The notes beneath the pieces are model-generated. The model did no database searches. It saw only the letters and a list, made by a program, of their open reading frames with translations, and was not told the origin of the DNA. Made by a program: the position numbers and the translations under genes. Source: Cyanidioschyzon merolae (lineage: Eukaryota). From it: 64,000 nt of DNA. Shown here piece by piece: positions 880-45,071 of this stretch. Positions within the stretch are counted from its first letter, which is position 1, and the number at the start of each line of letters is the position of its first letter. The stretch is from NCBI GenBank assembly GCA_000091205.1, contig AP006502.2; one strand, written 5' to 3'.

Positions 880-3415
880 CTCTTTGGTATTTTCTATATC
901 GTCCGCCCTGGTAGCGCATCGCGAATTCTTGCCGTTACGTCACACTCTGTGCGTCTCGCCGATCATGGGGAACGTGTTAATGACCTCTTCTAGAGCGACT
1001 GCTCCATTGGGGCCACTTGCATTTTTAATTGAATGGTAGCAAAGTATTGTTTTGTATTCAATGGCGTTTCTAACTTCTAGTAAGAGTATTCAACTGATTC
1101 TCGCCATTCAACGCAGAGGTGTCCGACGAGTTTTTTACTAAAAAATGTCAGACTTTTGTAATTTTAGGTTGTGTGTTATGGAGGGCCGTTGTCGCCGAGT
1201 ATCGGGAAAAAAGGTGACAGAGTAGCTAATTCCAGAGGACTAGGAAAAGAAGTGGAAGCGAAATGGGGAGGTGCTACGACGAACGCTGCAGTAGTTTCGT
1301 GTCTATGTCGATATGGTTGTGGAATCCTGTCGTCTCCAACATATCAATGATCCGTACGACTGAACGCTCCGAGACGCAATCAGAAACCGCGTCGACTTGC
1401 ACTCCAGGAATGTTTGTTACTCTTTTTTAGGACTTACGCTTTTCGTGAGCGAGCTGCATCGCGACGTAATGCACATCGCAAAAGTGATTCTTCCGGAATA
1501 CTTTATCAAAAAAGACTTTCATCAACCACCTGATTGCTCGCAATGGGGGCGCATCAAAGAGAACTGGGCGGGCGGATGCCTACGTCAAAATTTACGACAA
1601 GTACAGCATCAACGGTGCTGGACACAGGGGTGACGCAGATATTTACGAATACAGGGCTTTAGGTGCCTCACGAATGTGAGGAACCATATGATCCTAATCC
1701 TCGATTGTATCACGATATGCGTTGTCATTGCGCTGTACCCGGGCCTGTTTCGCGAAGGGATACCGGTAATCATCGATGGTATGAAGAACGATCGCCAGCA
1801 TGAACAGAAGATCATATTTGTCGACAAGGGAACATCACGCTGGAGAATAAATAGGTATTCTGTTATCCGCCCAAGTATTCAAAAGCGTCGTTCGGTCTCG
1901 GGACTTGTCAACCCAAGAGAAAAACCTGTCATGTATGGAAAATATGAAGAGAGATGTTCCTTCCTCATCTTGCCCTACTTCATGGTTTTTGGATCGAGAT
2001 CTCGAACGCAGGGCCGAAATGGAGCTGAGTATGGATACAATGGAGTATTGGAGAGTTGGCACTGAAGAACTCCTCCAGTTGCGCTTTATTCGACCGGTTA
2101 TGCGAATTCCAGTCACATGTTTTGATTTTTGACTTTAGAGTTCTTTTCGCCTTCATGGAAGAGGTTTATCCAGTGCCCGATGGATGCGACAGAGACGTAA
2201 CCGGCGAAGACCGGGATACCTACTAGACGCGGAAGTTCGAGCTCAAGCGTCCGAAACCGGCCAGTAAAAGGTATTCACCGGGGCCATGGATAACGATCGG
2301 GTATACATATATGTACACTTTCAGCGGTAGCAGGCATTTGTCCCATCCCGTCTTCTTTACCGCCCTCGCCGAAGCACGGAAACAGGAAGGCCGGCCATGG
2401 GATATATAATCCCCACGAGGACGACCTCGTCGTCGGCCTCAAACCCTGGAATACTGATTTTATAACCATCGTTGTTACAAGCGTTCGGAATATTTTACTG
2501 AATGTAGCTTACGTCGGAATGACAGGCGTCTTTTGAGGTTCTAGAGATCGACGTTCTACCCAGAAGCGGGAATCGTGAATACGAGGAAGAAAATTGAGAC
2601 TTGGGATGCAAAAGTGGAAGAGCATCTCGAAGTTGTGAGCGAGGTGAAGAGCCGAGGAGCGGATTTTCAGGCTTTTCAAGATTTCATGGATGTTCGTTTT
2701 GCTCATTGGGATGCGCTGTGGAAGGAGTATACAAAGCCCCGGTGGGCTTTTCTACGTGCGAATCTATACTGTCGGAAGCAGCATGCATTCGCGGACTTTT
2801 TCAATGAGTTGAGCTCCTTGAAGGAGAATGAAAGTCTGAGGCTCGTAGTAGCATATTGAGCATGGAGCTGGGCGTCGAGAAAGGGGACTACGCGTGCCCC
2901 AACGACAAGGACATTCAAAAAGTGTGCACGGCGTCTCGTTACGGTAACTGTAGATGAATTTGGAGCTTCGTATACACACCACGAGCTGTGATGTACACTC
3001 CACAGGGGCGAGATGGAAAAGTGCCAACGGAACCCTGAGGAAATAGCAAAGTACGGACCGCTGACGGAAGAGCAAATGGAAATGAGGGCAAAAGTTCGTG
3101 GACTCCTTGCATTAGTAGGTACAACGAACGATGGCGAGAAACGGATGGAGTTCGTGAACCGAGACTTTAACGCCGCTATCAGTATCAGTAGATGTGCGGT
3201 GCTGGAGAAGAGACTTGCAAAGTAGACAAGAGACAACTTTGTTGGACAACCTCACAAAGCCGAACTATATGAGAGCAAGTTGGAAGCAGTAGTGGGTGGC
3301 CGGTCGAAAACGGCGGGGAGGCGTCTGCACATCAGCTGGAGACGTTATGTCTCGGGCGCCGGTGGCCACTACTGTGCACGACCGGCGTTGTTCGACTTAG
3401 TACGGCGTTTCGCCG
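880..3415 (+). mobile_element. Fanzor/TnpB-like element, copy 0: 5'-eroded and internally deleted (~330 bp missing between ~2130 and ~2460)
   Basis: Nucleotide and protein similarity to copies 1-4. Left-end-like sequence from ~900, ORF1-like fragments at 1397-2132, and the RuvC-II/III part at 2462-3225 (ORFs 2575..2859 and 3013..3225 end in VNRDFNAAISI). The conserved 3' tail ends ~3415. Confidence 0.55.
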
Positions 3416-3520: not shown

Positions 3521-5401
3521 CTAGCCACAGGCACGACAACCACTTTGGGACGCGTCGCTCGAGCGTGGCAGAGTGATTGCTGGATTTTCATCAAAAAATC
3601 CGTATGGCTGTAGCATGAAGCCAGTGCTCATTGCCGGCTGCACTGGAAAGTCCTCCGGTCTCGGCAAGTGATGAATGCCGAACACGTGCCAGAGCACAAG
3701 ATCCGTATCCTCGATGCATCGATTCTGAGACACAAATCGAAGGATGCCGTCCTGTCCGTCCGAGAGATTCACGAATTCACCAGCTGGAAAGCGCTCTTCC
3801 GGATCATAGGCTGTCACCCACAAATGACGACGGATAAAGCCGGAGCGCTGTCCAGAGGGTGAGTCCGGGTCAAGGAACGGCGTGAGCGGATGTGCCGGTT
3901 CTAGTTTGTAGGCGACTGGCATATTAACACGATTCTTTTTGTTCGGATTCAACACTTTCCAATACCGGTGGCTGGCAGGATTCGCACAGCGACATGCCTC
4001 CAGCTCTGTTCGTAGCGGCGTCTCGGTGACGTAGTACGCATTCCCGTAGGGATTCGCAGCTGCATCCTCTGCTCGCGTATTACACTCTACAACAGAGTTG
4101 CGATCCCCGTCTACGCTGAGGTCCATCCGCACGCAGAAGTAATGCTGGTGAATGTGTCCTTCGACGCCAGGCATAACCTCAGTACCGTAGCGGCTCGGTC
4201 TGCCCGGCTCGCAGGCCACAGTGTTGATGACGCCAGTAGCCCGCATTTCGTACTCAATGGCGCCGTCCTGACGAAAATACCAGTATGAGGCGTACTCGTA
4301 ATTGCAAACCGTTGAAATGCTGGAGATGACGAGGCGTCTACCGCGCCGCGTTTCTGCACGGTCGGTGCGGAAATCCCAGTGCTTCCAGAGCAGGCCGGCA
4401 TCCTCTTCGTGAATGCAGATGGCGTTTGGTATGGTCAACGGCTCGCCGTGCATCGTGGCAATGTGGGCGTCCAAATAAACCACGCAACCGGTACAATCAC
4501 AATTCATCCGTAGCGAGTTCGCTAGCTTACCGATCCCGTACTCCCCAATATCAAAAACATTCTTTCGAAAGTGGGGCTCCACTGGCGTGCCGTACGGCAC
4601 GACCATCTCCACCAGGGAGAGCCTGCGAGCCACTGGGCGTCCAGCAAACCGAATATCATGCAGCGTGATACCCTCGCGTGCATTGAAACCAATCACCAGA
4701 GACCATTGATCCCAGGCAATTGAATGATCGTTCAGGACAAAGCTCGGTCCCTCGTCCTGCACAATGCGCAGCGGCTTCAAGGGCTTGCGAATATCAGTTC
4801 TCAGATTAGGTTCGTAATTGCATTCCGTTCGCGGTACGGGGATATTCTGCAGATCATAAACTTTGAGCACTTTATTGCCCAGGACATCCACCATCGCGTA
4901 AAGTCCTTCAACTGGGTGTGCATAGAGGTTGTCATCGGCATGATTCCGTACCCAGCAGAAAGCCAACGCAAGGTGGTGATCCTTCTCCTCAACGGAACCG
5001 AACGCCCCTGCCGACCACGGATCAATACAAACTAGACTCATGTCTTCGATACCGTGTTTCCTGCACGCAGCCTGGAACTCCGGACACGCCCGTACAGCTT
5101 CTTCTATAGCAGTGAACTGTTCAAGCTGGAGCATAGGGCGAGCGTTCGGGTAGTACTTTTTGGCGATTACGATCTCTTGCGAGAGCGAAACGATCAGCTT
5201 CCACACGCCAATAGAGCTTCTTCGGAAGATGAAGACCTCGGCCTCACGTTCGGTGGGCTTGCCGGCCACCCAGAGCTCTTTGGGTGGCTCGTGGAGCTGA
5301 ATTCGCTCAAAGAGCGGTTCCTCTGGGAAAGGTGCGCCCTGGCGGCCGATGCTGGCAGCACGTAAAATCTCCGCTGGCGTGAGCGGCGTCAACGGGTGCA
5401 T
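3521..5401 (-). CDS. Copper-containing amine oxidase (topaquinone enzyme), single exon, 627 aa from first ATG
   Basis: Uninterrupted 644-aa ORF in the track, but its start is TTG; the first ATG is at 5401. The product contains the TPQ consensus ...TVCNYEYASYWYF... and the His-x-His copper ligand motif (GHIHQHYFCVRMD) typical of copper amine oxidases. Confidence 0.85.
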   Translation of the reverse strand: MHPLTPLTPAEILRAASIGRQGAPFPEEPLFERIQLHEPPKELWVAGKPTEREAEVFIFRRSSIGVWKLIVSLSQEIVIAKKYYPNARPMLQLEQFTAIEEAVRACPEFQAACRKHGIEDMSLVCIDPWSAGAFGSVEEKDHHLALAFCWVRNHADDNLYAHPVEGLYAMVDVLGNKVLKVYDLQNIPVPRTECNYEPNLRTDIRKPLKPLRIVQDEGPSFVLNDHSIAWDQWSLVIGFNAREGITLHDIRFAGRPVARRLSLVEMVVPYGTPVEPHFRKNVFDIGEYGIGKLANSLRMNCDCTGCVVYLDAHIATMHGEPLTIPNAICIHEEDAGLLWKHWDFRTDRAETRRGRRLVISSISTVCNYEYASYWYFRQDGAIEYEMRATGVINTVACEPGRPSRYGTEVMPGVEGHIHQHYFCVRMDLSVDGDRNSVVECNTRAEDAAANPYGNAYYVTETPLRTELEACRCANPASHRYWKVLNPNKKNRVNMPVAYKLEPAHPLTPFLDPDSPSGQRSGFIRRHLWVTAYDPEERFPAGEFVNLSDGQDGILRFVSQNRCIEDTDLVLWHVFGIHHLPRPEDFPVQPAMSTGFMLQPYGFFDENPAITLPRSSDASQSGCRACG

Positions 5402-6072
5402 AATAGAGGTGTCCTGCCTCTTGTGCAGTAGTGCAAAGACAACACGAGCAACCAAGATTACCTCGGTTGCGCTTCAAGGCGCCTCAGCGTCTACCGTACC
5501 AAGCACTGCAACGGTAACCGGGAGCAATGCAGGAATGAATTCCGTTGAGCGATCAACTTGCGACATAGATGTACAGAACGTACAGGAGCAATCTGGGTGT
5601 CGGACACGTCTCCTTCATCGAGCGGGGAGGCGTCTCGCGCAGTGCACGCATCGCTCTTGGTGAGCGTATACCTGGGAAATCAGGCAGTCAACTGACACGA
5701 TGCGTATGCCATTGAAGGGAAACGCGATCCTGATCAGTAGGGTGTTGTTGAACCGGAAAAAGTTGGATTTCAATTCAGGTCGTAGCCAAGAACATTTTTC
5801 ACTTCGTATTTGTTTCAACCTTCAAACAAGTCTAGACAAGTGGTTTTTCGCAGTATATAACAGAAGCGTTCAAAGAGCGTTGTTTTTTTAAAAAAAAAAC
5901 CTAAAAATGGAAAGCTTTGAGAAAGCAAGCTGACGATCCTGGAGGGCTAGGGTCGCCGGCCGCTAGAGACAAACAAAAAGCAGTACCGAGTCCAGAAGAA
6001 AAGGAAGAGAAGAAGAACCGAAAGCGGGAGGCCCTACGTCGGAGGCGGCAAGAAACATGACTGTAGAACGAG

Positions 6073-8267
6073 ATGGAGGTGAAAACCTTTCTTCTTGGAC
6101 GTATAAAGGATCCCTACAGGGAAAAGTTGCGAGAATCTATCGAAAAACGTGTCGACTCGTACTCCTTGAGGATTATGAAGGTTTCTTCATAACTATTCCA
6201 TTTGGTGAAGGAGATGTGTCGCGACGTAACCTAGATGGAAATGGTGGACATTCCGGACAAGTTTTTCGATAAGACCTTTATTCGTCACTTGATGCTTGGC
6301 ACAGAGAAAGCGCGGAAGGAAAATGAGCGGGTGTATGCGCTCCACGAAAAACATCCCTTTTACAGCTTCAAGGGTACTCGGTACAAGGGTGACCGGGATG
6401 TTTACGACTATGGGGCGATGAAGTACCTCACGAACCTGAAGAACCATTTGACAGAGAACCTCGAACGTTCCATGATACGCGCCGTGTTTGCGCTGTACCC
6501 TGGCATCGCTCGCAAAGGAAAATGGGCGATTACCAATGGCGTCACGAACGATCGCAAGCATGAAGATGCTATCGAGCTCGTCGACAAGAAGACATCACGT
6601 AAGCGAAAGAATGAAGCTTCTGTAATCCGTGCGGCCATACACGAGTACCGTACAGTCTTGGGGTTGGCAAATCCGACAGACAAGATATCAGAGTTGAAAA
6701 AATATAAGGAATGATACTATCGCCTCGTCCTGCGCTATTTTGTGTTTCTGGACCGAGAACTCGAACGCAAGGCAGAGGCGAGGCTGAGTGAGGAAAAAAA
6801 TGAAGAGTGGGAGAGACGGAAGGCTTTCCTAATGGGTAAGCGCTTCAACGTCGTTCCAACGTGCAAGATCAAGTGACATTTGTAACTATCGACTCTAGAA
6901 TCCTTCACGCCATCATGAAGGAGATCAGTCCGGAGTTCAGTGTCAGCAAGGAGAAGTTCTCCGGTGAAAACCGGGAGAGGTACTGGAAGAATATCTTCGA
7001 TTTCAAACGCTTGAGAGTGAGCAAGGAAACGTTGTTCACCGGGATGTTTGAAACCGATGGAGTAGCCTAGTGTGTACACTATCGGCGGTTCAAGAAAGAT
7101 CGTCCTGGTCCGCCGTCGGCTGTGCCCGTGACGAAGGATGAAGAAAAGAATGAGGCGGATCCTGCGACGCAGGAGGTGGAGGAGAACGAACTTATCTTTG
7201 ACGCGGCGAATCATGAAGATGAGGAGGAGGCGGATCCTGTGACGCAGGAGGTGGAGGAGAACGACCTTGTCGTTGACGTGGCGAAGCATGAAGGAAAGAA
7301 GGAGGCGGATCCTACAATGCAGAAAACGCAGGAGAACGACTTTGTCGTTGGTGTGGACCCTGGAAATACGAATATCATAACCATCGCAGCACCCAAGCGC
7401 GCGGAAGATGGTGCTGATGGTAACTTGCGTCGGAAAGACATGCGTCTTTTGAGGTTCTCAAGAGCTAGATATTACTGAGAATCCGGTGTAATGTATGCAA
7501 GGAAGAAAACCGAGAAATGGAATTCAGGAATGAAAGATCACCTAAAAGCTTTGAGCGAAGTGACGAGCCGAGGAACCGACTTTGAAGCTTTTCGGAAATT
7601 CATGGAAGATCGGTTTGCGCATTGGGATGCGCTGTGGGAGGAGTATACCATGCCCCGGTGGGCTTGTTTGCGTATGAATTTGTATTGTGGGAAGCAGCGG
7701 GCGTTCGCCAACTTCTTCAATCAGTTGAGCGCCTTGAAGGAGGACCAGAGTCAGAGGCTTGTAGTAGCGTATGGGGCAGGCCGCTGGAAGACCCAAAAAG
7801 GAACAATGCCACCTCCAACGACAAGAACGCACAAGGAGTGCGCACAACGTCTCTTTACGATACCTGTAGACGAGTTCCGAACATCCTATACACACCATGA
7901 ACTGGGATGTACACTTCAGAAAGTGGAGATGGAAAAGTGTTAGCGGAGCCCTGAAGACATAGCAAAGTACGGTCCTTTGACGGAAGAGGAAACGGAAAGG
8001 AGACCGAAAGTTCGAGGGCTACTCGCATAAGTGAATACAACTAACGGGAAGAAACCGATGGAACTCGTGAACCGGGACTTAAATGCCGCTATCAATATCC
8101 GAAAATGTGCGATGCTGGAGACGAGACCTCCAGAATGGACAAGAGGGAACTTTGTTGGACAACCTCTTGAAGTCGAACTATATGAGAGAAAGTTTGAAGC
8201 AGTAGTCGGTGGCCGGTCCAAAAAGACGGGTAGGCGTCTGCACGTCAGTTGGAGACGTCTTGTCTAG
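6073..8267 (+). pseudogene. Fanzor/TnpB-like (OrfB_IS605 family) nuclease pseudogene, copy 1
   Basis: The ancestral single ORF (~730 aa) is broken by in-frame TAA and TAG in the N-terminal part, TGA at 6715, a 1-nt deletion near 6880, TAG at 7071, TGA at 7479, TAG at 7944 and TAA near 8026. Fragments appear in the track as 6235..6714, 6861..7070, 7122..7478, 7491..7943 and 8031..8267. Confidence 0.7.
7122..7330. repeat. Three tandem ~75-bp (25-aa) acidic repeats inside the Fanzor-like ORF, immediately upstream of RuvC-I
   Basis: [26 protein letters not shown] / [25 protein letters not shown] / [26 protein letters not shown]. The other copies carry 1-2 units. Confidence 0.6.
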
Positions 8268-8340
8268 GGCGGCCCGGACGCCACTACTGTACACGGTCGG
8301 CTTCGTTCGAGTTCAGAACGGCGTTTGGCTGTGGTGTTGA

Positions 8341-10854
8341 ATGTCGAGCGCCGATCAGCCTCCGACCCAGTCTCAAGAGCAAAACTGGTCTCAGGTCTCG
8401 AGCACTGTCGTCGAAGTTGCCCACACAGTGGACGTTCATGTTCAACCCGTGTGCTTCGTCGATCTGAGCGAGGAAATTCACGCCTTCGCGCAGCTAGAAA
8501 AGTTTGCGAAGTGTGAATCATCCGAAGTTATCATAGATCTTAATGTCCGAAATACACATCAAGCTGTTGGGGCCCTCGTTCGCTGTCTGGAGGAGCGCGG
8601 AAAGTTGCCAGCTCACTCCGGAGACTTGCTACGGCGGCAGCTCCTGGGCGCAGAGCCACCGTCACTCTTTCAACTTGCACAGCAGGGGCTTCATATGTCT
8701 AGTGGGGGAGACGTACTCGGCCACGCTTCTGGATACTGGACACATAGCATACAGGGGCCCTCTTTTATTATTGGGTATACCGAAACCCCTTTGTTGCTTA
8801 GTGACGAGGAAGCAGTAGCAGTTGCACGGCTCGCACACCCACTGAACGCTGGGGCACTCAACAACTCGCTGACACGCTTCCTAGTACTTGTACTGACGCT
8901 TGCGCACGATACACCCCAGGTTCGCCGGGCGTCCGAAATGGCACGCGTTTTCGCTTCGCTTTTCGCAGATGAAGTATTCTACGACGAAGCTGTCGAGGCG
9001 TCCGATAGAGCTTCTTTCCTGGAGGCTATCCATCGTTTCCTTGAACGGCAACGGGACGCTGCACGAGAACGCGAAGCGCTGCATCGAAGCGTTCGATTGG
9101 CGACAGCAGCCACGGTGACTTTCTTCGATGATGATAATCATGTTGATGGTGATGGCGTTGCGGAGTATCTTGGTGGTACAGATGGCGGTACCCTTTCTGG
9201 GTGCAGAACAAAAGATGTGACTATTAACGACAATTTTGGTATCATGAACGCTCGCCTCGACCGATACTTCAAAGCACAAGGATATTCGAATCTGGATACG
9301 GTGCCACGCTGGAAGTACTGGTTGGCGCTGTTCTTTCGCTTTCCGGGGGCATTGATGGCTGCAGATCTTCGCCGCCGTCTACCCCATTATCGATCCGACT
9401 GGACAGCGGAATGGAACAAGATTCACGCTCTCGGAAAGTATTTCTTCGCGAGTATTTTTCTCATATTTACAGTCACGTTGCCTGCGATTGTTTTCGGCGT
9501 TATAGCGAGTCGCACGACTCACGGAGAGATTGGTGTCATCGAGTGTCTGTTTGCCCAGGGTGTACTGGGCATTGGTTTTGCGTTCTTCAGCGCCCAGCCG
9601 CTGATGGTGAATATGGTCACTGGTCCCACCATCGTCTACATTCAAGTGCTCTATCGCTGGTCCCAGAGGCTCGGGTTCGCATTTCTTCCCTTTTTTGGAT
9701 GGACAGGTATTTGGATGGGCATTTTTGTGATGTCGTATGCGATCATGAATACGTCAACACTCATACCGTACCTTGGCCGATTCACTGATGAGATTTTCCA
9801 AACCTTTATTGGAATCATTTTTATTCAATATTGGTTTACGGAATTTGTCCGAGTTACGCACACTGGCTACGAACAGGTCCTTTTATTCTTGGTGCTTTCT
9901 CTGGGAACGCTTCTGCTTGCGTTACTTCTGGTGTCTGTACGAGGCAGTTTCCTGCTACGCCCCATACTGCGATCCATTCTGGGGGACATCGGCCCCGCTC
10001 TCTCTGTTTTCATTTGGACCGGTCTGTCGTACGCGTTCGATCCGATTGATGTGCCTCGTCTGCAGATACCGGGCTCTGTTGGTTACAGCACAACGACTGG
10101 ACGACCGTGGATTGTCCCACTAGGAAGTCTATCCGTCGGCTATGTATTTTTGGCCATCGTTCCCGGCTGGCTGCTCTCGCTCATCGTCTACATTGATCAA
10201 CAGGTGTGTACTTATATCGTGGAACGACCGGAAAATCGCTTGCGCAAAGGCACTGGGTACAGTTGGAATCTTTTCGTGACTGGCGCTCTTGCCGTTCTTG
10301 CCTCGATTCTCGGCATACCTTGGATGTATGCAGGGCTGCCACACTCGCTTTTGCACGTTTATGCACTTGCTGAAATTGAGGACATAGAGCTCATGGGAAG
10401 ACGATGGATACGTGTTCTTCGTGCGCGGGAGGTGCGCATTGCTGCACTAAGCGCTTACCTCTTTGCCTTGTTGATCATTCTGGCCAAACCAGCTCTAGAT
10501 CAGCTGCCGATCTATGTGTTGTACGGCTTTATTCTGTACATGGGTGCAGCTTCATTTCTGAACAACCCTCTCTGGGATCGATTCGTTCTCTTGTTTACAC
10601 AGCCAACCAAGTACCCACCGACACATTATGTTCGACGTGTCCCCATGAGTCACCTGCACCTCTACACCTCTGTTCAGGTAATCCTTACAGTCGTTCTCTT
10701 TTTTGTCGCGGTCAATTTTTATCGAGGTGCAACTCTATTCAATACTGGCCTCATCTTTCCATTGGTCCTGTTCCTTTTCGTCCCATTCAAGTGGATGGTG
10801 TTGTATCGCTGGTTTCCGCGACGTGAGCTGCGCGTGCTTGAAAATCAGCTTTAG
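8341..10854 (+). CDS. SLC4/band-3-type anion exchanger (HCO3-/borate transporter family), 837 aa, single exon
   Basis: The start is ATG. The N-terminal half is cytoplasmic and the C-terminal half is multi-TM. Band-3 signatures are present: DLRRRLPHYRSDW (compare DIRRRYPYYLSD), GVIECLFAQGVLGIGFAFFSAQPLMVNMVTGP (compare [32 protein letters not shown]) and FTEFVRV. Confidence 0.8.
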   Translation: MSSADQPPTQSQEQNWSQVSSTVVEVAHTVDVHVQPVCFVDLSEEIHAFAQLEKFAKCESSEVIIDLNVRNTHQAVGALVRCLEERGKLPAHSGDLLRRQLLGAEPPSLFQLAQQGLHMSSGGDVLGHASGYWTHSIQGPSFIIGYTETPLLLSDEEAVAVARLAHPLNAGALNNSLTRFLVLVLTLAHDTPQVRRASEMARVFASLFADEVFYDEAVEASDRASFLEAIHRFLERQRDAAREREALHRSVRLATAATVTFFDDDNHVDGDGVAEYLGGTDGGTLSGCRTKDVTINDNFGIMNARLDRYFKAQGYSNLDTVPRWKYWLALFFRFPGALMAADLRRRLPHYRSDWTAEWNKIHALGKYFFASIFLIFTVTLPAIVFGVIASRTTHGEIGVIECLFAQGVLGIGFAFFSAQPLMVNMVTGPTIVYIQVLYRWSQRLGFAFLPFFGWTGIWMGIFVMSYAIMNTSTLIPYLGRFTDEIFQTFIGIIFIQYWFTEFVRVTHTGYEQVLLFLVLSLGTLLLALLLVSVRGSFLLRPILRSILGDIGPALSVFIWTGLSYAFDPIDVPRLQIPGSVGYSTTTGRPWIVPLGSLSVGYVFLAIVPGWLLSLIVYIDQQVCTYIVERPENRLRKGTGYSWNLFVTGALAVLASILGIPWMYAGLPHSLLHVYALAEIEDIELMGRRWIRVLRAREVRIAALSAYLFALLIILAKPALDQLPIYVLYGFILYMGAASFLNNPLWDRFVLLFTQPTKYPPTHYVRRVPMSHLHLYTSVQVILTVVLFFVAVNFYRGATLFNTGLIFPLVLFLFVPFKWMVLYRWFPRRELRVLENQL

Positions 10855-13800
10855 ATGGAAATTTCTGATCGAGTCTTGGGAGTTTTCCAGTAAAATTGGC
10901 CATCGCAGATTGATAGATAGACTGTAGAGTCGGAAATCGTGTTTACATTTCATCGAAGCGCAAATTGCTGGGGCAGGCATGTATCAGCAGAGGCCCTTTT
11001 TGCGAGTACGGGAGGTAGGTGCTTTCCTGATGCGAGGCCGAGATCTCGAGTCCAAAGTGATCCGCTGATGCTTGCTTTTCCAGAGGTAGAGACTCCCTTT
11101 GCCGGAACTGGTCGTGATTTGTACCCACAACCGGTACGGAAGGCACGTCAGTGAAGAGATTCGCTACGACTATACGCGGTATCATACGATTATGCTGCGG
11201 AGATCTCGGATACGAGAGCCGAAATACAACACGTGGCGCTGATAAAACAACCCGCTTGATTGCATGCGACTTGTTGGACATTCGGGAACAAGGCGGTTCA
11301 TTTTGAAACGCCCATGCCAGCATACCTTCTTTGTTTATGTTTGTTATTCTCGCTGGTATTCGCGAATCGACCGTGTCGCATAGATTGGAAATGAGCCGTG
11401 GAAAGAGTACATGCTGTTATCATCGGACAACGTCATACGAGATTACAGGTGAAACACAGTGATTCTAGGGTCATCAAACGGATGAACGAGTTTTTCGTTG
11501 TACTTATCTTGACCCTCCTACACCCAAAACTAAACACAGAAATATCGCCTACAAGACTGTGTCCGGGTTCATCCTTTTCTTTGCATGCGACCTCGAAGAG
11601 AGACTACAATCACCTACAGGGTGTGAATGGTCCACATCGTTGATTCGGACAGCGATCAAGGGACACAGACGGACAGAAGGAAGGCATTATTTATTGCAGA
11701 CCGCCACGCTCCGAACAGGGCAAAATCGAATTCATACTCAAACGCACGCGTATCTCTCGGGAGAAAGAGGTATGGATCTCGAATGGTGAAGTTCTAGTCA
11801 AGAGAAATACTATTCTTGAATATGGGTACTCGGAGGTTAAGCGTAAACCCCTGATCGTAAAAGAGACAGCGCGCAACCTGACAACATCGGTCTTACCAGT
11901 TTCCAAGTACATCGTGTGCTGGGAATCGCGGAACTTGCAGCATAACTCAATGACACATGTTCCTTCCGAGTACTTCACAATGCCTCCTTCACAAAACCAT
12001 AGAACCCGATCGTCGATGACGTCGGTCTCCATCACATAGAAGCGGACGGAAAATACGCAGCTGATATTGGCAGCTGTTGCTATTTGGTCCTTCCCATTCT
12101 ATCTGGACAAAATCAGCAACTGGGATCTTCTCTGCAGTCAGACGATAATCGTGTATACACAGATCACTTAGAGAGTTGTTCGACTTCGTGAAATTGAACT
12201 TCTTTGATAAAACCTTCCTCGACATATCGGTGACCTACTTTACCAGCTCATAGCCACCGTCATCTTCCTCGTACATATGAAGGAGGAGGAAGAAAGGCGA
12301 GCGCCAAACTGTAGGCGTGCTCGCGACGGCAAGACTGGGTTGATTTACTAGAAGAAGTAACTTTCGTCGCACGGTCCATCCCGCACAAACGACTCCTTTT
12401 GGAAACAAATGCATCCACAGTAAGCTGGCCACTGCCAAGCACTCCTTCGGTGTGGATGAAAAACGGTGTAACGGGAAGGATGAGAAGCAACGGGAAAGAA
12501 AGGAAGAGAATCCTCCAGGAAGACGACCAAGGAGGACTTGGGGCAAAAGCTGTCGGAGCGGAAACATCTTTCAGGAACCATCGTCAAGGCCTCCGTCCTA
12601 CAACTTACCATCAGGAATAATCTCCCACACAACGAAATGCTCAACATCGTTCCCGATCGCGTGGCTTCTGTCTCGACGCAAGGTAAACCCAGTTTCCCGC
12701 TCCACGATGCATGTCGCTGAGCAGGTGTTCGTACCAGTCTCGGACGCAGAGCTGCTAGCAGCCGGGATTCCTCGGGAGCTTTTCGATCTCGGCTTTGTGC
12801 CATAACACAATGGATGCTCGGGACGGAAGACGCAGTGCGGTCCGAGTACAGGATCAGGGAGATACGCGCACACACACACATTACCCAGACTTGGTTGACG
12901 CTTCACTGCACAATGTTGACGATCGGAACATCTGCACTGCAGGCGACCATAACACTATCAAACCGACCACTGCAATCAAGTCCATACGCCTGCCAAATGA
13001 CGAGCGCTCCATGCAGCGCACCCTGTAGGCGTTCCATTCTCACGCTGGCGGCCCCGGTGAGTTGGTACTGACACCAAAAAAGAATCTTCGCCTCTGCGCA
13101 TACACGAGCGTCCATATCGCCCAGGCGGACAATCCGTGGCACGAATCCATGCGACAGTGCTGGTGCTGCCAAAAGATTCCATTCGACGGAGGCAGGTCTC
13201 TTGCATTCACCAACTTGTCCAATGCACTGAAAAGATAAGTGACCGAAAAGCCGTTTTGTTTTCCGGTGGTAACCCGCGTCGCTGGACGTTCTGTGGCGAG
13301 CCATGGAGACGCCCATGTCCCTTCGACGAACGCACGCCGCAAGTGCATTGCTCCATGCCGAACGAATCCCATCGATGCATCCAGGGCGCCATCCAGGTAT
13401 CTTGAGCACGGGCGCGCATGCACGAAGCTACAGAAGAAGGGCTTGAAATACATCCAGATGAACGAGATGGCGTGCGTCTCGCTGACTTGACGGAGATACG
13501 AATGCCTCGATCGGCATCCGAAAAGGACCCCTGCGATTCGGGAGCGTCCATCGTTTCTTTTTTTCTGCCGGAGGATCTTTCCAGTTGATCTATTGACGAC
13601 GCAGTGCGCCGTTGTTCGGCAGAGCGGAATGCTTCTGATCCAAAGAAATCAATGCCAAAGATATAACGCATTTGATTCCGGTCTGGAGCAATGCACTGGT
13701 ATTGTATGAGCTGCAACCCAGTAGGTCTTGAGCGCCGTACGTTTGCACTGGAAGTGATGCTTCCAGGCAAAAAGTAGAAGATATTGCTGTCCTATGGTTC

Positions 13801-15037
13801 GCTATTATTGACTAGTAAGTAAGAGCAGTACGGCTTCATTTGATCCAAAAGTGAAATCGACCACCGATAGGATTGTGACAAGCGTCAATTGAGACGAAGA
13901 GCGCTCCTATAGCACGATAGACTCTATGACAGTTGCTACATAACAAACACGGATGCTCCTGCATTCAGCGTATATGTCGTGCAACTCCATGCTTCAATGT
14001 GTCCAGTCATGGTCGGCCGTTTGCGAGCGTGACAGTCCACGTCCACTCAGAGAAGCAGTTCTCCTCGAGAGTCAACGTAGGCACAGCGTTAGGGTCCACC
14101 TGATAGTAGCGTCTCACAACTGATACCAGCGTGATTAGGTGGCTTAACGGTACGATACGTTTATCCTAAAAAATAAAACACCCCAGCAATACGACAGCCA
14201 GTGCATTGCTTTCTTCGGGAAGACGACTCGTCTATTGTTAGGCAACGTTGCGGTACGACACGCATCTCACCGGACACGTAGGAGAAGGCGTATATCAGCA
14301 AGAGGGATCCTACTCGTCCCCCAGTATCCATTCGCATTCCAGAATGCTATCGGAAAGAAGGAACCGACGAGCGCCGCCGATCACACTGCTGGAGTATCAC
14401 AGGGGCATATCATACTAGGTGTCCCTATTACGGCAATAAGCTCCTGAGCAAACCTTCTGCAACCATAACACAAAGTCTGAAATGCTCTCCCTATTTTGGA
14501 TGACGTCCGGAGGCTCTATCCGTAACGTCCAGGATGGCACCTGTGCCTGAAACTCGCCCTGCTCCACCTACTGAGCGCACGTGGACCTGAAGGCGCACAG
14601 GAAAGAGCACCATACGCATCTGCCGCCTACACTGCCGAGTGAATCGTAAGACACCACGACCAAGAAAAGCGTTTATACACAGTACGCACCAACGCATGCC
14701 ATCCCCCTCTGATCCGTCTGGAGTTGCCGGACGCACGCTTCACAGTCGCAACTAGCCGGCTGTCCCATGAGCGAGGTTCAGCTACAGATCCACCCATAAC
14801 AGATTCGATGTCCCTGCTCGCCTCGTAACGTCCGCCACTGCTCCCAGAAGCGAAGCGCCTCATTCGCACAAACGCGTGCTTAGACGGCAACGTCCCTACC
14901 GTACGCAAGAACCGCGCCCGTACAACCCGCATCACTTGAACTGAAGCAGCGATACCTACAGTTCCCGATGCGTACAGCGCTCGTCACGCCCGGGGCGCTT
15001 GGCGATGTGGCTTTCAGGGCAGAGAGCGTGGGCGAGC

Positions 15038-17622
15038 TCGCCTGGGAAATCGCGCAGTCAACTGACACGATGCGCGTGCCGCCGATGAAGGGAAACGTTG
15101 TCGTGATCAGTTACGTGTTGTTCTGCTGTAAACATCGGATTTCTGTTGAGGCCATAGCAAAATACAGTCTTTCGGTTCGGTTTTGTTTCAAACTTCAACC
15201 AAGTCTAGTAAAGTGCTTTTTCGCAGCATATAACAGAAGCGTTCATTGAGGGTTCATTAAAAAACGAAAAACGGAAAGCTATGGAAAACCAGTCGACGAT
15301 CCTGGAGGGCTAGGGTCGCCGGCTGCCAGAAAAAAAACAAAAAGCAGTGCCGAGTCCAGAAGAAAAGGAAGGGAAGATGAACCGAAAGCGGGAGGCCCTA
15401 CGTCGGAGGCGGCAAGAAACATGACTGTAGAACGAGATGGAGGTGAAAACCTTTCTTCTTGGACACATCAAGGATCCCTACAGGGAAAAGTTGCGATACC
15501 CTATCAGAAAACGTGTCGACTCGTACTCCTTGAGGATTATGAAGGTTTCTTCATAACTATTCCATTTGGTGAAGGAGATGTGTCGCGACGTACCGCAGAT
15601 GGAAATGGTGGAGATTCCTGACAAGTTTTTCGATAAGACCTTTATTCGTCACTTGATGCTTGGCACAGAGAAAGGACGGATGGAAAATGAGCGGGTGCAT
15701 GCTCTCCACGAAAAACATCCCTTTTACAGCTTCAAGGGTACTCGGTACAAGGGTGACCGGGATGTTTACGACTATGGGGCGATGAAGTACCTCACGAACC
15801 TGAAGAACCGTTTGACAGAGAACCTCGAACGTTCCATGATACGCGCCGTGGTTGCACTCTACCCGGGCCAGTCTCGCCAAGGAAAATGGGCGATTATCAT
15901 AGGAATCACCAAAGATCGCAAGCATGAAGATGAGATCGAACTCGTCGACAAGAAGACATCACGTAAGAGAAAGAATGAAGCTTCTGTCATCCGTGCGGCC
16001 ATACACGAGTACCGTACAGTCTTGGGGTTGGCAAATCCGACAGACAAGATATCAGAGTTGAAAAAATATAAGGAATGATACTATCGCCTCGTCCTGCGCT
16101 ATTTTGTGTTTCTGGACCGAGAACTCGAACGCAAGGCAGAGGCGAGGCTGAGTGAGGAAAAAAATGAAGAGTGGGAGAGACGGAAGGCTTTCCTAATGGG
16201 TAAGCGCTTCGACGTGGTTCCAATGTGCAAGATCAAGTCACATTTGTGACTATCGACTCCGGCGTCCTTTACGGCATCATGAAGGAGATCAGTTCCGAGC
16301 TCAATGTCAGCAGGGAGGAGTTCTCCGGTGAAAACCGGGAGACGTACTGGAAGAATATCCTCAATTTCAAACGTCTCAAAGTCAGCGCGAAAAAGAAATT
16401 CACTGGGATGCTCGAAACCGATGGAGCAACCATTTGTGTACACTATCGGCGGTTAAAGAAAGATCGTCCAGTCCCGCCCTCGGCTGAGTCCTCTGCGAAA
16501 CATGAAGAAAACAAAGAAGCGAATCCTGAGACGCAAAAATTGCAGGATGACGACCTTGTCGTTGGCGCGGTGAGGCATGAAGAATAGAAGGAGGCAGATC
16601 TTGCGACGCAGGAGGTGCAGGATAACGACCTTGTCGTTCCTGCGGACCCGGGGAATACAAATATCATAACCATCGTTGTGCCCAAGCATGCGGAAGATGG
16701 TACTGACGGCAACTTACGTCAGAAAGACACGCGTGTGTTGAGATTCTCGAGAGCGAGAAATTATCGAGAATCCGGTATAATGAATGCGAGGAAGAAAATC
16801 GAGACTTGGGATGCAGGAATGAAGGATCAAATGGAAGCTTTGAGCGAGTTGACTAGCCGACGAACGGACGTTGAAGCTTTTCGGAAATTCATGGAAGTTC
16901 GCATTGCGCATTGGGATGCGCGGTGGGAGGAGTATACAAAGCCCCGGTGGGCTCGTCTGCGTATGAATTTCTACTGTGGCAATCAGCGGGCGTTCGCGAA
17001 TTTTTTTTAATAAGTTGAGCGCCTTGAAGGAGAATGAAAGTCAGAGGCTCGTAGTAGCGTACGGAGCAGGACGTTGGGCGTCGAGAAAAGGGACTACACC
17101 AGCTCCAACGACAAGGGTGTACAAAGAGTTCGCAAGGCATTTCGTTACGATACCTGTATTTGAGTTCCGAACATCGTATACACACCATGAGCTGGGTTGT
17201 ATACTCCAGAGAGTCGAGATGGAAAAGTGCCTGCGGAGTCCTGAAGATATACAAAAGCACGTACCGCTGACGGAGGTGCAACTGGAAAGGAGGGCGAAAG
17301 TGCGAGGGCCTCTCGCATTAGTAAGTACAGCCAATGATGGCAAGAAACGTATGGAGTGTGTGAACCCAGATTTTAATGCCGCTATCAATACAGGAAAAAG
17401 TGCGGTGCTGGAGAAAAGATCTCCAGAGTGGACAAGAGGGAACTTTATTGGACAACCTCTCAAAGTTGCACTATATAAGAAGAAGTTGTAAGCAGTACTA
17501 GGTGACCGGTCCAAAAAGAAGGGGTGGCGTCTGCCCTTACTTGGAGATGTTTCGTCTAGGGCGCGGTTACAGCCACTACTCTACAGCTGGCGACAGCGTT
17601 TTTTCTTTTGAAAGGTGTTTCT
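15038..17622 (+). mobile_element. Fanzor/TnpB-like element, copy 2 (pseudogenised)
   Basis: Same left end, ORF and right-end tail as copy 1. It shares copy 1's two N-terminal nonsense codons and its 1-nt deletion, and has its own frameshift at the run ttttttttaataag (~17005). Confidence 0.75.
15437..17560 (+). pseudogene. Fanzor/TnpB-like nuclease pseudogene, copy 2
   Basis: Track fragments are 15566..16078, 16225..16587, 16615..17010 ([13 protein letters not shown]...RLLRFS) and 16976..17491 (LVVAYGAGRW ... FEFRTSYTHHELGC ... VNPDFNAAINT). Confidence 0.7.
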
Positions 17623-19566
17623 TTCCAGGGGTGCGTCCGCCAAGCGACACTATCCAACTGGAAGCCCGCAAGCACCAGCAACGTCCTCTGTAGAGCGCAA
17701 TCACGAAACCTGCACAGGATCACACGTGGGCGGTACCAGCTTCGCTGTCAATGCTCCTCGAGAAAATGCTCTGCAGCGGGATATAACGCGCTGCCTGGCC
17801 GAACTGTAGGCCGAAGCTCACCAGCCCGTTTCCGTGACTATAATATATCGTATCGAGGTTTCGCGTCGTAGCGCTTTGTATACCGACGGTTAAATAGAGT
17901 GTGGAGGCAAACGACGAACGCTTATCTCGCACGTACGCAGCACAAGTTAAACTAACTCAGACGATACCGCTTGCAGACGATTCGACGGCGCCTGGCTCAT
18001 CACTGTGCAATTCGTCGTGGCAGACCCCTCTGACGCTCGGAGTACTTTGGTCGGCAAAGATATTGGCTAAAGAGGTTTGTGTACTTGCTGCTGGGAACTC
18101 CTTCTGTTCCAGGCCTGGTACGAGCGCCAACTCCGGGAGATCGTTTACGAGCATCCAACTTTGCCGGACGTTGGTGATGCGGGCGGGCGGTGGTAGCAAG
18201 TCGAGGCGCTAGCGCCGCGCTTCTAAGGCGTCACGAGCGAGCAAGCAGTGAAGCTTCGAAGTATACGGTGCCACGTACGGCAAAGAGCGTTGTCCCCCAC
18301 GTAATCCTGACCGTTTATCTTACGCAAACGCGTCGGTAACCATTCCTTGCTTTCCCAACATTGAATCTATCAACTGTTTCACCTGTGCGCACTACTTGTT
18401 CACGAACTTAGAGTGAAATCCGCCTCGCACGAAGCCATTCGGATGAACCATGCTACCTGTGCTCCGCCAGCGATGAGGACGCGGGTCTGCGCTCATCCGT
18501 CGTGTTTTGTACTAGCTGAAGGACTTCAATAGTACCAGTGCATGAGAGCATTGACAGCAAGTCTGAGAATACGTCGCCACCGCAGTGCAAGCGCGTTACA
18601 AGCACACACGCACATGAAACCGCTACTATATCCATCTCTCTCGGAGCAAGCATCATCGGCCCAGTCACTATTTCGATCGATCTAATAGTTCACATCTTCT
18701 ACGGTTTCCATTCCACACAGGATTCACATTTCGATATTCTGTTTGCTGCTTATTTTAGCAACGCAACAGAACAAGTCGCTGTCGCAGAATAGCCCCAATC
18801 TGACCACTGCGCATCTGGTTCGGTCGCTGACGTTCCCTCACGAACGCAAAGCGGAACTATGGCAACAATGTGTATCGAATGCTACAAAGAAAGCGGATAT
18901 ACACGGAGAGCAGCTCGAAAGGTGCGAAACGAAGCATACAGACTGCGAGTTTTTCCAAGCTCCATCATGAATGTGGCATTTGGTAAAAGAACCTCCCCAA
19001 TACCGTGACATTGTAAACGGAGCGCACCGTTCCAGTACAGAGCAATTTTCATTCCCGTGTTCACCGAAATGGAACGATGCCTGGCGGATCCACTCCGCTG
19101 CAAACAGTATTTGCGGAAGGCCAAAGCTTCAGCGATAAGGTGCACTTTGAAACGCTCCTGAAGCAGATGTAGTTCTGTGTACGTGTAATTGATGCGCTGC
19201 GTGTATTAGCACCAATAGTGCTGCTCGAAAAGCCCTTGATAAGAAGGTAACGGGCAAAACTTTTCGTTCCAAGTCACTCGACAGCTGGCGTGTATTGCGA
19301 GGTGAGGTCACTCACCGGTTCAGAAGTAATAGTACGCGAGCGTGTGTTTCAGTGCTGCTGCCGCTTATTCCACCAGATGACTCGAGACCTGCTACATAAA
19401 AGTCATGAGTTCCGTGCATCAGCCACGTCCACACTGCGGCTGAATTGCCCAGAGTGCACTTAACACCATCGAGGAGCGCTTTTGCAGAGCGTCCTGCCTC
19501 CCATGCATGGATCCCTTGACTGGGGCGTTCTGAGCACCTTCAGTCGATAGGCTATTCTTGAAAAGA

Positions 19567-22500
19567 TCAAATGATGTTCTGCACGTGTTGAATTCGAGGA
19601 ACGACATAGAACCAACGACCGAATGCCGTCATATTCATCCCATTGTTCGTGCTAGATAGACCGCCGCTGCCACTGGTGCCTGAACCAGAAGTTCCGCTGC
19701 TGCTACCACTACCGGTGTCACTGGTGCCTGAACCAAAAGTTCCGCTGTTGCTACCACTGCTTGTGTCACTGGTGCCTGAACCAAAAGTTCCGCTGTTGCT
19801 ACCACTGCTTGTGTCACTGGTGCCTGAACCAGGAGTTTTGCTGCTGCTACCACTGCCGGTGTCACTGGTGCCTGAACCAGGAGTTCCGCTGTTGCTACCA
19901 CTGCTTGTGTCACTGGTGCCTGAACCAGGAGTTCCGCTGTTGCTACCACTGCTTGTGTCACTGGTGCCTGAGCCCAAATTCCCGGCTCTGCTGCTACTGC
20001 TGCTGACAGGGATAGCGGATGTCTGCTCGATGATCCTATCCGGGCCTGAAGATGAGGTAGTTGGAGCATCGATACCTGTTCCAGGGCGGGGTGTTGACCC
20101 TAGACTGCTAAAAGTTGGCGGACTTATCGTGGTACGCATCGCTGTTGCGAATGCCCCCAGTGTGGATGAATGCGAGTTACGTTCTCCGCCGGGTTCCACA
20201 TTGTCTAAAAAGGAGCCGCCAGAAGTGCTCGTTGTAATAACCGGACTAAAGGGCGGTGGTAGTGTTGCCGTGGTCGCCACAGGTAGAGTGCTTACAGAGA
20301 GCGATGAGGCCTGTGATGATGTGGGGGTCACCGACATCGCATTCATCGTAGCGATGTACGGAGTTGGTGTGGGATGAACAACAGCTGGAGTAACCGTTGC
20401 AGTTGCTCTTGGAGCGCTTTCGGCACTATGGGTGCTGTTCCGCTCAGGTTCAGCAAAAAAGGCCTCAGAGACGCCAGACGATGCCGTGCCATTCGAGGTT
20501 GACGTACCCGCCTGGGTGCATACGCAGAGGTCGCCAACGCAGACCTTGGCCAGGTTACCAGAACAGCTGCCGGTGGTCGTTACGCACCCGCAGATATCTC
20601 CCAATAGACATGTGTAGACGACTCCTCCGGGGCACGGGGGAACCGAAGTAGACGAGACCGTACTCGTCGATGTAGACGTCGACGTGGTCATCGCTACGGA
20701 CGACGGCGTGCCAGTCGACGAAAACGAAGATATAGAGGCCGAGGGAACATTCGGAGAAGGTGAAGAAGAACTCGTCGACGAAGGCGTAAAATAAGGGATT
20801 GTTGTCGCTGCAGCAGTAGCCGATCTGTCCAACGATTGCCGTAACGAAGCACTCGATGACGCACTCGATGACGCACTCGATGACGCACTCGATGACGCAC
20901 TCGATGACGCACTTACAGATGCCTTTCGAGTCGGATGACGAGAGCGACCGCTCGATGACGATACATGGTCAGACGTACTGCGTGAGGAAGAAGAGCTCAT
21001 GGAGTACGAGTACGAGGCACTGGCAGATGCACTCGCAGATGAACTAGCAGACGCACTCGCAGAGGCGCTTAGAGATGCACTCGCAGAGGCGCTTAGAGAT
21101 GCACTCACAGAGGCGCTTAGAGATGCACTCGCAGAGTCATACGCGCTCACAGAGTACGAACCAGAAGCGCTCGCAGATGCGCTGGCAGACGCAGACTCGC
21201 TCTTCGACTGAGAGTACGAGTACGAGTACGAGGCACTGGCAGATGCACTCGCAGAGGCGCTTAGAGATGCACTCGCAGAGTCATACGCGCTCACAGAGTA
21301 TGAACCAGAAGCGCTCGCAGATGCGCTGGCAGACGCAGACTCGCTCTTCGACTGAGAGAACGAGTACGAGTACGAGGCACTGGCAGACGCACTCGCAGAG
21401 GCGCTTAGAGATGCACTCGCAGAGTCATACGCGCTCACAGAGTACGACCCAGAAGCGCTCGCAGATGCGCTGGCAGACGCAGACTCGCTCTTCGACTGAG
21501 AGTACGAGTACGAGTACGAGGCACTGGCAGATGCACTCGCAGAGGCGCTTAGAGATGCACTCGCAGAGTCATACGCGCTCACAGAGTACGACCCAGAAGC
21601 GCTCGCAGATGCGCTGGCAGACGCAGACTCGCTCTTCGACTGAGAGTACGAGTACGAGTACGAGGCACTGGCAGACGCACTCGCAGAGGCGCTTAGAGAT
21701 GCACTCGCAGAGTCATACGCGCTCACAGAGTACGACCCAGAAGCGCTCGCAGATGCGCTGGCAGACGCAGACTCGCTCTTCGACTGAGAGTACGAGTACG
21801 AGTACGAGTACGAGGCACTGGCAGACGCACTCGCAGAGGCGCTTAGAGATGCACTCGCAGAGTCATACGCGCTCACAGAGTACGAACCAGAAGCGCTCGC
21901 AGATGCGCTGGCAGACGCAGACTCGCTCTTCGACTGAGAGTACGAGTACGAGTACGAGGCACTGGCAGACGCACTCGCAGATGAACTAGCAGACGCACTC
22001 GCAGAGGCGCTTAGAGATGCACTCGCAGAGTCATACGCGCTCACAGAGTACGACCCAGAAGCGCTCGCAGATGCGCTGGCAGACGCAGACTCGCTCTTCG
22101 ACTGAGAGTACGAGTACGAGTACGAGGCACTGGCAGACGCACTCGCAGATGAACTAGCAGACGCACTCGCAGAGGCGCTTAGAGATGCACTCCCTGAGGC
22201 GCTTAGAGATGCACTCGCGGAGGCGCTTAGAGACGCACTCGCGGAGGCGCTTAGAGATGCACTCGCAGAGGCGCTTAGAGATGCACTCGCAGAGGCACTG
22301 GCAGACGCACTCGCTGAGGCGCTTAGAGATGCACTCGCAGAGTCATACGCGCTCACAGAGTACGACCCAGAAGCGCTCGCAGATGCGCTGGCAGACGCAG
22401 ACTCGCTCTTCGACTGAGAGTACGAGTACGAGTACGAGGCACTGGCAGACGCACTCGCAGAGGCGCTTAGAGACGCACTCGCAGAGGCGCTTAGAGATGC

Positions 22501-31770: not shown

Positions 31771-31813
31771 AATGCTGCCACAAGTAAACGTCTTGTCTAT
31801 GAAAAAAAGAATC

Positions 31814-44984: not shown

Positions 44985-45071
44985 GGGACTCACGGGGACT
45001 TGAACCCCGGACCTCTCGCACGTTCTTCGGTAACTCCCGAAGCGAGCATTCTACCCCTGAACTATGAGTCC
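44985..45071 (-). tRNA. tRNA-Pro (anticodon CGG) with a 15-nt intron between positions 37 and 38
   Basis: Folded by hand on the minus strand: GGACTCA-TA-GTTC-AGGGGTA-GAAT-G-CTCGC-TTCGGG-[agttaccgaagaacg]-T-GCGAG-AGGTC-CGGGG-TTCAAGT-CCCCG-TGAGTCC-C. All four stems are fully paired. It closely resembles the eukaryotic tRNA-Pro consensus (...CTCGCTTNGGGTGCGAGAGGTCCCGGGTTCAAATCCCGG...). CCA is not encoded. Confidence 0.6.

Follow-up and report, generated by a model that had tools for sequence, protein, structure and literature searches.

A novel interspersed repetitive element, present in 253 copies with a mean length of 3.2 kb and making up ~5% of the genome, was described in Cyanidioschyzon merolae by Nozaki et al. 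2007 (PMC1955436), where the elements were reported to be transcribed and all copies to carry truncated open reading frames (ORFs) whose BLASTX similarity to WSV486 of white spot syndrome virus (WSSV) was weak. Fanzor was subsequently defined by Bao & Jurka 2013, with one C. merolae Fanzor1 family and a WSSV Fanzor1 among those listed (PMC3627910). The C. merolae family, CMe-1A, comprises ~150 copies, each ~80% identical to a ~3-kb consensus, has no terminal inverted repeats (TIRs) and no determinable target-site duplications (TSDs), and its 5' 635 bp are 95% identical to a separate element of ~70 copies, TE-N2_CMe (PMC3627910). Here, a 64-kb stretch of the C. merolae genome (contig AP006502.2; hereafter the window) was analysed, in which a Fanzor1-encoding element is present in five copies.

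The window copies and CMe-1A have in common the host genome, a size of 2.6-3.2 kb, ~80% identity to a consensus, a single Fanzor1 ORF and the absence of TIRs. In addition, the ~635-bp head of CMe-1A, found solo as TE-N2_CMe, is matched by a head of ~640-650 bp in the long form of the element, found solo in metagenome loci. Nothing essential differs between the two, three of the five window copies being short forms without the head. We are highly confident that the five copies are independently inserted, long-dead members of CMe-1A in the left subtelomere of chromosome 20, and the interspersed repeat of 2007 appears to be the same family, judging from host, size and the link to WSSV. The element is already known, as a repeat since the C. 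merolae genome papers and as a Fanzor1 since 2013 (PMC1955436, PMC3627910). An original prediction, made by a model from the sequence of the window, had treated the family as one still to be characterised, which is out of date; its suggestion that an intact copy may exist elsewhere in the genome agrees with the report that some CMe-1A copies still code for an intact protein (PMC3627910).

Five copies and older relics in the window

A BLASTN search of the window with positions 5655-8342 returned matches at ~15041-17585, 31829-34393, 56179-58550 and 1231-3413, all on the + strand, so that a unit of 2.6-3.1 kb is present five times on this strand, the copies being 65-88% identical and occupying ~20% of the window. 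Self-comparison of the window recovered these five copies and none on the minus strand, in agreement with the original prediction of five same-strand copies of ~2.6 kb filling about that share of the sequence. In a five-way alignment the copies have a shared start point, ATCGCGCTCGGTGAGCGCACCT..., and similarity stops shortly past the ORF. The copies are listed below, with stops and frame changes counted by tblastn of the repaired consensus protein onto the window.

898-3413, + strand: copy 1, more diverged than the other four and within 1 kb of the telomere repeat; 14 stops, 2 frame changes
5650-8330, + strand: copy 2, short form, between an amine oxidase gene and an anion transporter gene; 9 stops, 1 frame change
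15034-17623, + strand: copy 3, short form; 6 stops, 2 frame changes
31811-34431, + strand: copy 4, short form, its 5' end abutting the A-rich 3' end of a non-LTR (long terminal repeat) retrotransposon; 7 stops, 3 frame changes
55473-58550, + strand: copy 5, long form of ~3.1 kb, with the head at 55473-56120 and the Fanzor core from 56120; 4 stops, 2 frame changes

The five predicted intervals stood, with the correction that copy 5 is a long form beginning at 55473 and lacks ~90 nt at its 3' terminus, hairpin included. Judging from a remnant of the long-form head at 453-510, copy 1 may once have begun near 260. Decay of every copy, also predicted, was evident from the 4-14 in-frame stops and 1-3 frameshifts found in each; because each carries both kinds of lesion, all five are pseudogenes and none is active in the window.

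For comparison, a set of 85 related loci from hot-spring metagenomes (L-numbers) was used. No fully intact ORF was found among these 85 metagenomic and related loci, the best being 747 and 722 aa in length with one lesion each. Divergence from the consensus, calculated over the C-terminal 323 codons of 90 copies, was 9.0%, 7.3% and 18.4% at codon positions 1, 2 and 3 respectively, and this third-position excess indicates that much of the divergence within the family arose under purifying selection, a pattern that agrees with the remark of Bao & Jurka on long-lasting coding capacity (PMC3627910).

Much older relics from a more distant Fanzor1 lineage, two or three in number, were visible only with distant homologues or with a family profile built from a 106-sequence alignment:

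12505-13442, + strand: old, internally deleted relic of a more distant Fanzor1 family (profile positions 7-65 and 435-548)
41436-42824 (profile 105-526) and 45537-45737 (profile 543-608), + strand: old relic in two blocks, with ~2.7 kb between them that includes a tRNA-Pro gene

The two blocks of the latter may represent one interrupted element or two. A six-frame profile scan of the window gave seven Fanzor-derived loci in total, the five copies and the relics, all on the + strand, with no minus-strand profile match at an independent E-value below 1. The two-sided binomial probability of seven of seven loci lying on the same strand is P ~0.016, which is no more than suggestive of an orientation bias. 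From ~253 copies in 16.5 Mb (PMC1955436) approximately one copy per 64 kb would be expected, so that five copies amount to a roughly five-fold local excess (Poisson P ~0.003). Neither solo TE-N2 heads nor solo 3' modules were found in the window.

The encoded Fanzor1 protein and its active site

The majority consensus of the five copies reads as a protein of ~727 aa after two frame changes and holds every peptide motif quoted in the original prediction. All of these motifs were located in copy 2 between 7347 and 8111, as RuvC-I (VGVDPGNTN, 7347-7388), the RuvC-II strand, without its Glu (7755-7787), the shifted catalytic Glu in DEFRTS (7869-7910) and RuvC-III (NRDLNAAINI, 8067-8111). The predicted acidic repeat module was likewise recovered:

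7127-7350, + strand: acidic tandem repeat of copy 2, 25 aa (75 nt) x 3.0 units, following the WED strands and preceding RuvC-I

The number of repeat units differs among copies, and the equivalent residues 384-469 of a metagenomic homologue, P0001, are predicted to be disordered, forming the sole disordered part of the model described below. An intact element would encode one protein of ~730 aa, composed of a basic N-terminus resembling a nuclear localisation signal, a helical REC region, WED strands, the disordered acidic repeat and a split RuvC domain. No second ORF was present within the element.

A database search with the element protein returned 46 relatives. Many were close (56-88% identical), and these came nearly all from Joint Genome Institute (JGI) metagenomes; four others were intact proteins, 612-662 aa long and 31-36% identical. 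The one Pfam label precomputed for the relatives was PF26935 (DUF8286), marked as weak, for which a literature search found no papers. By exhaustive profile search, the family extends to 4333 clusters (50% identity) with E<=1e-3, of which 585 reach E<=1e-30, with members mostly 600-650 aa in length and having basic N-termini. A phmmer search of the C-terminal half against PDB sequences returned nothing. The 106-member profile matched the Fanzor1 proteins of Parasitella parasitica (E 1.3e-25), Spizellomyces punctatus (E 2.3e-20) and Guillardia theta (E 4.4e-16), and beyond these three no PDB sequence was matched at E<=1. The aligned span runs from REC through the WED segment FTGTIETDGV and DPGR of RuvC-I to DEFRTS...NRD.NAA.N.

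An AlphaFold2 model of P0001, which is 73% identical to the element protein, was obtained from the 106-sequence alignment with a predicted local distance difference test score (pLDDT) of 83.4 and a predicted template modelling score (pTM) of 0.82; this depth of alignment was needed, the model from five sequences being uninformative (pLDDT 39). In a Foldseek search of the P0001 model against the PDB, the top seven structures were all Fanzor1 (E 3e-16 to 2e-13, target-normalised TM <=0.71), followed by Cas12 proteins. Together, the profile matches and the predicted fold support the assignment of the element protein to Fanzor1, and the TnpB/Fanzor-like reading of the original prediction held under both profile search and the structure prediction that it had proposed as a check. 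The Pfam search it had also proposed would, by itself, have failed.

The solved Fanzor1 structures SpuFz1 (8GKH), PpFz1 (9CF0) and GtFz1 (9CER) have the same domain order, DPG motif, shifted Glu within (D)E(F/Y)xTS, NRD motif and fold as the element family, with Foldseek E ~1e-15 and profile E down to 1e-25, but with identities of only 13-16%. Unlike these proteins, the element copies carry a disordered acidic 25-aa tandem repeat ahead of RuvC-I, and the element has no evident TIR-bearing partner transposon.

Across the 106 family members, D484 (DPG), G486, G623 (AYG, on the RuvC-II strand), E656 (DEFRT), R724 and D725 (NRD) are invariant and P485 is nearly so; the conservation of D484 and D725 confirmed the predicted positions of RuvC-I and RuvC-III. 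In Fanzors the RuvC-II Glu is replaced by Gly or Pro and a conserved Glu downstream takes over (PMC10530073), DPG serves as the RuvC-I motif, and a few residues separate the shifted Glu from the zinc finger downstream of it (bioRxiv 10.1101/2023.08.09.552727). Judged from the alignment, the active site of the element protein is the Fanzor-type rearranged triad, consisting of the Asp of DPG, the relocated Glu of DEFRT and the Asp of NRD.NAA.NI, with Gly at the position of the old RuvC-II Glu. RLVVAYGAGRW, proposed as RuvC-II, is thus the right strand but a non-catalytic one, with Gly where TnpB has its catalytic Glu.

The assignment of DEFRTSYTHHELGC to the zinc-finger position did not survive: that site holds the catalytic Glu of DEFRTS, and the segment is not a zinc finger because the CxxC...CxxC cysteines are missing. 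No such motif, frequent in Fanzor1 though not found in every member, occurs between the shifted Glu and RuvC-III, where the consensus reads DEFRTSYTHHELGC...RGLLALVST, and the zinc-finger cysteines of SpuFz, PpFz and GtFz fall on non-Cys columns of the family alignment. Whereas the solved Fanzor1s have a CxxC...CxxC finger after the shifted Glu, the wider clade commonly retains one of the four Cys (LLWC) and the C. merolae consensus not even that one. By this comparison of sequences, the zinc-binding cysteines have been lost from the lobe that separates RuvC-II from RuvC-III.

With the prokaryotic TnpB of IS200/IS605 elements such as ISDra2, the element shares ancestry as an RuvC-type RNA-guided nuclease, the lack of TIRs and TSDs, and an RNA presumed to come from the 3' end. 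It differs from TnpB in its replaced RuvC-II Glu, the lack of a significant OrfB_IS605/TNB match in Pfam, the absence of a TnpA gene, the larger protein with REC and N-terminal extensions, and the eukaryotic host. Subterminal hairpins are found at both ends of IS200/IS605 elements, whereas here only the 3' one is present and the 5' candidate is no better than shuffled sequence.

Element ends, junctions and possible routes of spread

Conserved sequence extends for ~90 nt downstream of the stop codon and breaks off after ...CGAACGGCGTT, beyond which a TTGNTGGTG run shows weak similarity. In most copies the last ~25 nt form a hairpin (median dG, the folding free energy, -10.1 kcal/mol; median z -3.4 against dinucleotide shuffles), of which there are two variants, CGUCGUUCGA-CUU-UCGAACGGCG and ACGUUUUUC-UUUU-GAAAGACGU, both pairing. 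The best-kept example in the window is in copy 4:

34405-34426, + strand: 3'-terminal hairpin of copy 4, ACGTTTTTC-TTTC-GAAAGGCGT

Weaker equivalents lie at 8304-8323 (copy 2), 3388-3407 (copy 1) and 17597-17617 (copy 3). By analogy with related systems, the 3' end is plausibly an omega-RNA 3' module or a cis-acting transposon end. At two metagenome loci, L052 (~400-519) and L028 (~330-450), similarity to the element is confined to its final ~110 nt, running from GGCGTCTGCACGTCAG as far as the hairpin, and the upstream sequence is non-Fanzor; these sequences may be non-autonomous partners using the same 3' module.

At the 5' side, the short form starts with ATCGCGC (copies 2, 3 and 4), and the long form adds the ~650-bp head (copy 5 from 55473, with the trace in copy 1), which is conserved in at least nine metagenome loci and occurs solo in L083 and L047/L048. 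The head terminates in a variable T-rich run, and its outer 200-300 nt are, at 69-80% identity and in at least ten independent loci including copy 5 (55584-55745), an inverted copy of the 3' untranslated region (3'UTR) of a long interspersed nuclear element (LINE) that is resident in the window:

27552-31808, + strand: non-LTR retrotransposon (LINE); 839-aa reverse transcriptase (RT) ORF at 28156-30675; C-terminal part frameshifted and containing a CCHC-like motif; 3' end A-rich, at ~31808, directly next to copy 4

LINE sequence is also found at the short-form boundary, as a direct LINE 3' end (copy 4, L045, L048 and L033), an inverted LINE 5' end (L004 and L020) or an inverted, internally truncated LINE (L001, L014 and L026), with yet another type of junction in L067 and L068. 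In L005, L022, L030, L057, L072 and L073, head position ~513 is joined to core consensus position ~571, which defines a deletion subfamily; its presence at several loci indicates that the truncated form was itself copied.

Several candidate features of the ends were rejected. The shared 12-mer ACGTCTTGTCTA, considered as a trace of a TIR, was attributed to chance, as comparisons of the element tail with the reverse-complemented head and with the LINE 3'UTR both scored below shuffled controls. The possibility that TE-N2 is an internally deleted LINE was discarded on the dissimilarity of the inner head to the LINE 5' end, and a 5'-boundary hairpin, GCGCTC-GGT-GAGCGC, was no better than shuffled sequence (median z -0.27). 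By eye, no consistent TSD was seen at eight full-length loci, and no transposase gene was found in the element. Empty-site orthologues of the window insertions were absent among the 85 loci, in which the only overlap in unique sequence was a contig that also carries copy 2, the remainder being LINE 5' sequence.

On the basis of characterised Fanzor1 (PMC10530073) and TnpB systems, the protein of an intact element would bind an omega-RNA whose transcribed region takes in the 3' end of the Fanzor gene itself and the ~90-nt tail that closes with the hairpin. The guide would be read from the flanking DNA, and matching DNA next to a short target-adjacent motif (TAM) would be cut, with the cleavage possibly favouring retention, copying or spread of the element.

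The association with LINE sequence raises the alternative that spread of CMe-1A is tied to the resident non-LTR retrotransposon rather than to cut-and-paste movement, either as a LINE-tailed retroposon or through capture of LINE cDNA at breaks at the 5' boundary; this we regard as unlikely. In its retroposon version, which is comparably doubtful, the long form would be a LINE-dependent element akin to a short interspersed nuclear element (SINE), carrying an antisense Fanzor gene and copied by the resident non-LTR RT without a DNA transposase, such that the minus strand would read as the reverse complement of Fanzor, ~330 nt of unique sequence, ~300 nt of LINE 3'UTR-like sequence and an A-rich tail. 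The inverted LINE 3'UTR in the outer head is consistent with this, as are the variable T-rich end of the head, being the complement of an A-rich tail, the absence of TIRs (see also PMC3627910), the LINE sequence abutting the Fanzor 5' boundary in at least four junction types, and the reported association of Fanzor1c with LINEs (PMC10530073). In approximately one quarter of copies, furthermore, the Fanzor 3' side has a ragged end, falling within the last ~60 nt, in the manner of variable cDNA 5' ends. The likeness is to a SINE with a LINE-derived 3' tail, in that the long-form head has a LINE-3'UTR-like segment and an A-rich run, inverted relative to the Fanzor gene; however, a 2.2-kb protein gene is atypical of a SINE, TSDs were not found, and short forms without the tail exist. 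Such headless forms, present at a number of unrelated loci (copies 2, 3 and 4 and the group A loci), could not have arisen by target-primed reverse transcription from a LINE-like tail. Also opposed to a retroposon origin are the dissimilarity of the inner head to the LINE 5' end, and the conserved hairpin and ~110-nt 3' module, which are common to non-Fanzor elements and look like a cis-acting Fanzor 3' end.

Another conceivable route is movement of the 2.6-kb core as single-stranded DNA, in the manner of IS200/IS605 elements or Helitrons, with a transposase supplied in trans. The conserved subterminal 3' hairpin, the sharing of only the 3' ~110 nt with non-Fanzor elements, and the failure to find either TIRs or TSDs are all compatible with such movement, and the strict + orientation of the seven Fanzor-derived segments (P ~0.016) could reflect replication-linked single-strand insertion. 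However, the seven loci lie in one subtelomere and constitute a small sample, some perhaps having been duplicated together, and the lack of a supported 5' hairpin, the heterogeneous 5' boundary and the absence of any Y1/HUH or Rep-helicase ORF within or beside any copy make this route improbable. Least credible, to the point of being very nearly dismissed, is derivation of the copies from an integrated gene of a large DNA virus, similar to WSV486 of WSSV, rather than from a cellular transposon. Weak BLASTX similarity to WSV486 (PMC1955436) and the presence of Fanzor1 genes in WSSV and other large DNA viruses (PMC3627910) would be in keeping with a viral source, but the WSSV protein is itself a Fanzor1, and each copy consists of one gene only, bounded by its own conserved ends and unaccompanied by other viral genes. 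There are, moreover, hundreds of dispersed copies, and hundreds more in metagenome contigs amid ordinary eukaryotic genes.

The preferred reading is that of decayed CMe-1A copies encoding a Fanzor1 nuclease, and a number of observations count against it. No TnpB model of Pfam (OrfB_IS605, OrfB_Zn_ribbon/TNB) was significant for the repaired consensus or for its homologues, close and distant alike; the only match of the consensus was to PF07282 (Cas12f1-like TNB) at E 0.076 and 13.6 bits, against a cut-off of 26.3. The modelled protein, P0001, is a metagenomic homologue rather than a window copy, and the catalytic triad was read from the alignment. Identity with CMe-1A was judged from host, size, divergence among copies, head structure and Fanzor1 content. 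The omega-RNA is proposed by analogy only: an Rfam search of the 3' end returned no family, and RNAalifold of the last 300 nt of 39 3' ends gave 6 pairs at -3.5 kcal/mol, close to no consensus structure. The hairpin emerges only in single-sequence folding, because its two variants pair in different registers.

Chromosomal setting and significance

Positions 1-20 of the window read CCCCCCATTTCCCCCCAT, the complement of AATGGGGGG, the telomere repeat of C. merolae (PMC1955436), and the CCCCCCATT telomere repeat opens the window. Since this complement stands at its start, the window lies at the extreme left of a chromosome, which appears to be chromosome 20 (1.62 Mb) of C. merolae 10D. Of the window ORFs, three match C. 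merolae 10D proteins with full identity, namely BAM83051, an N-terminal acetyltransferase, and the products of the two genes flanking copy 2:

3521-5455, - strand: copper amine oxidase, BAM83045, the first gene of the window, ~3.5 kb from the telomere repeat
8341-10854, + strand: anion transporter, BAM83046

Amine oxidase and anion transporter genes are listed among the genes of C. merolae chromosome termini (PMC1955436). For both flanking genes, at least two more C. merolae chromosomes (810,151 and 1,282,939 bp) carry a near-identical paralogue, which fits a duplicated subtelomeric block. The copy 2 insertion is also present in a metagenome contig, L008, with 99.3% identity across 6464-11263; C. 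merolae itself grows at 45 C and pH 1.5 (PMC1955436).

Elsewhere in the window, a 2454-aa ORF occupies 19567-26931 on the - strand, within which a nested tandem array of ~4.9 kb (21000-25926) has periods of 12, 24, 144, 168 and ~300 nt; this looks like a highly repetitive protein-coding gene with no relation to the Fanzor elements. The tRNA gene within the gap of the two-block relic is as follows.

44984-45072, - strand: tRNA-Pro(CGG), 89 nt, a length into which an intron could fit

The additions made here to the description of CMe-1A are minor, consisting of the 3'-terminal hairpin, the LINE-3'UTR-like head, the recurrent LINE junctions at the 5' boundary, the same-strand orientation of the seven Fanzor-derived segments and the third-codon-position excess. 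The biological gain is small, with a modest value in the observations on ends and junctions and in flagging DUF8286 as Fanzor1. This link would be a useful curation note, as the only Pfam label of the family is the weak DUF8286, and the case is one in which a Fanzor1 nuclease was recognised from raw sequence where Pfam fails. Spread tied to a LINE would, if true, provide a mechanistic connection, the first of its kind, between retrotransposition and an element with an RNA-guided nuclease.

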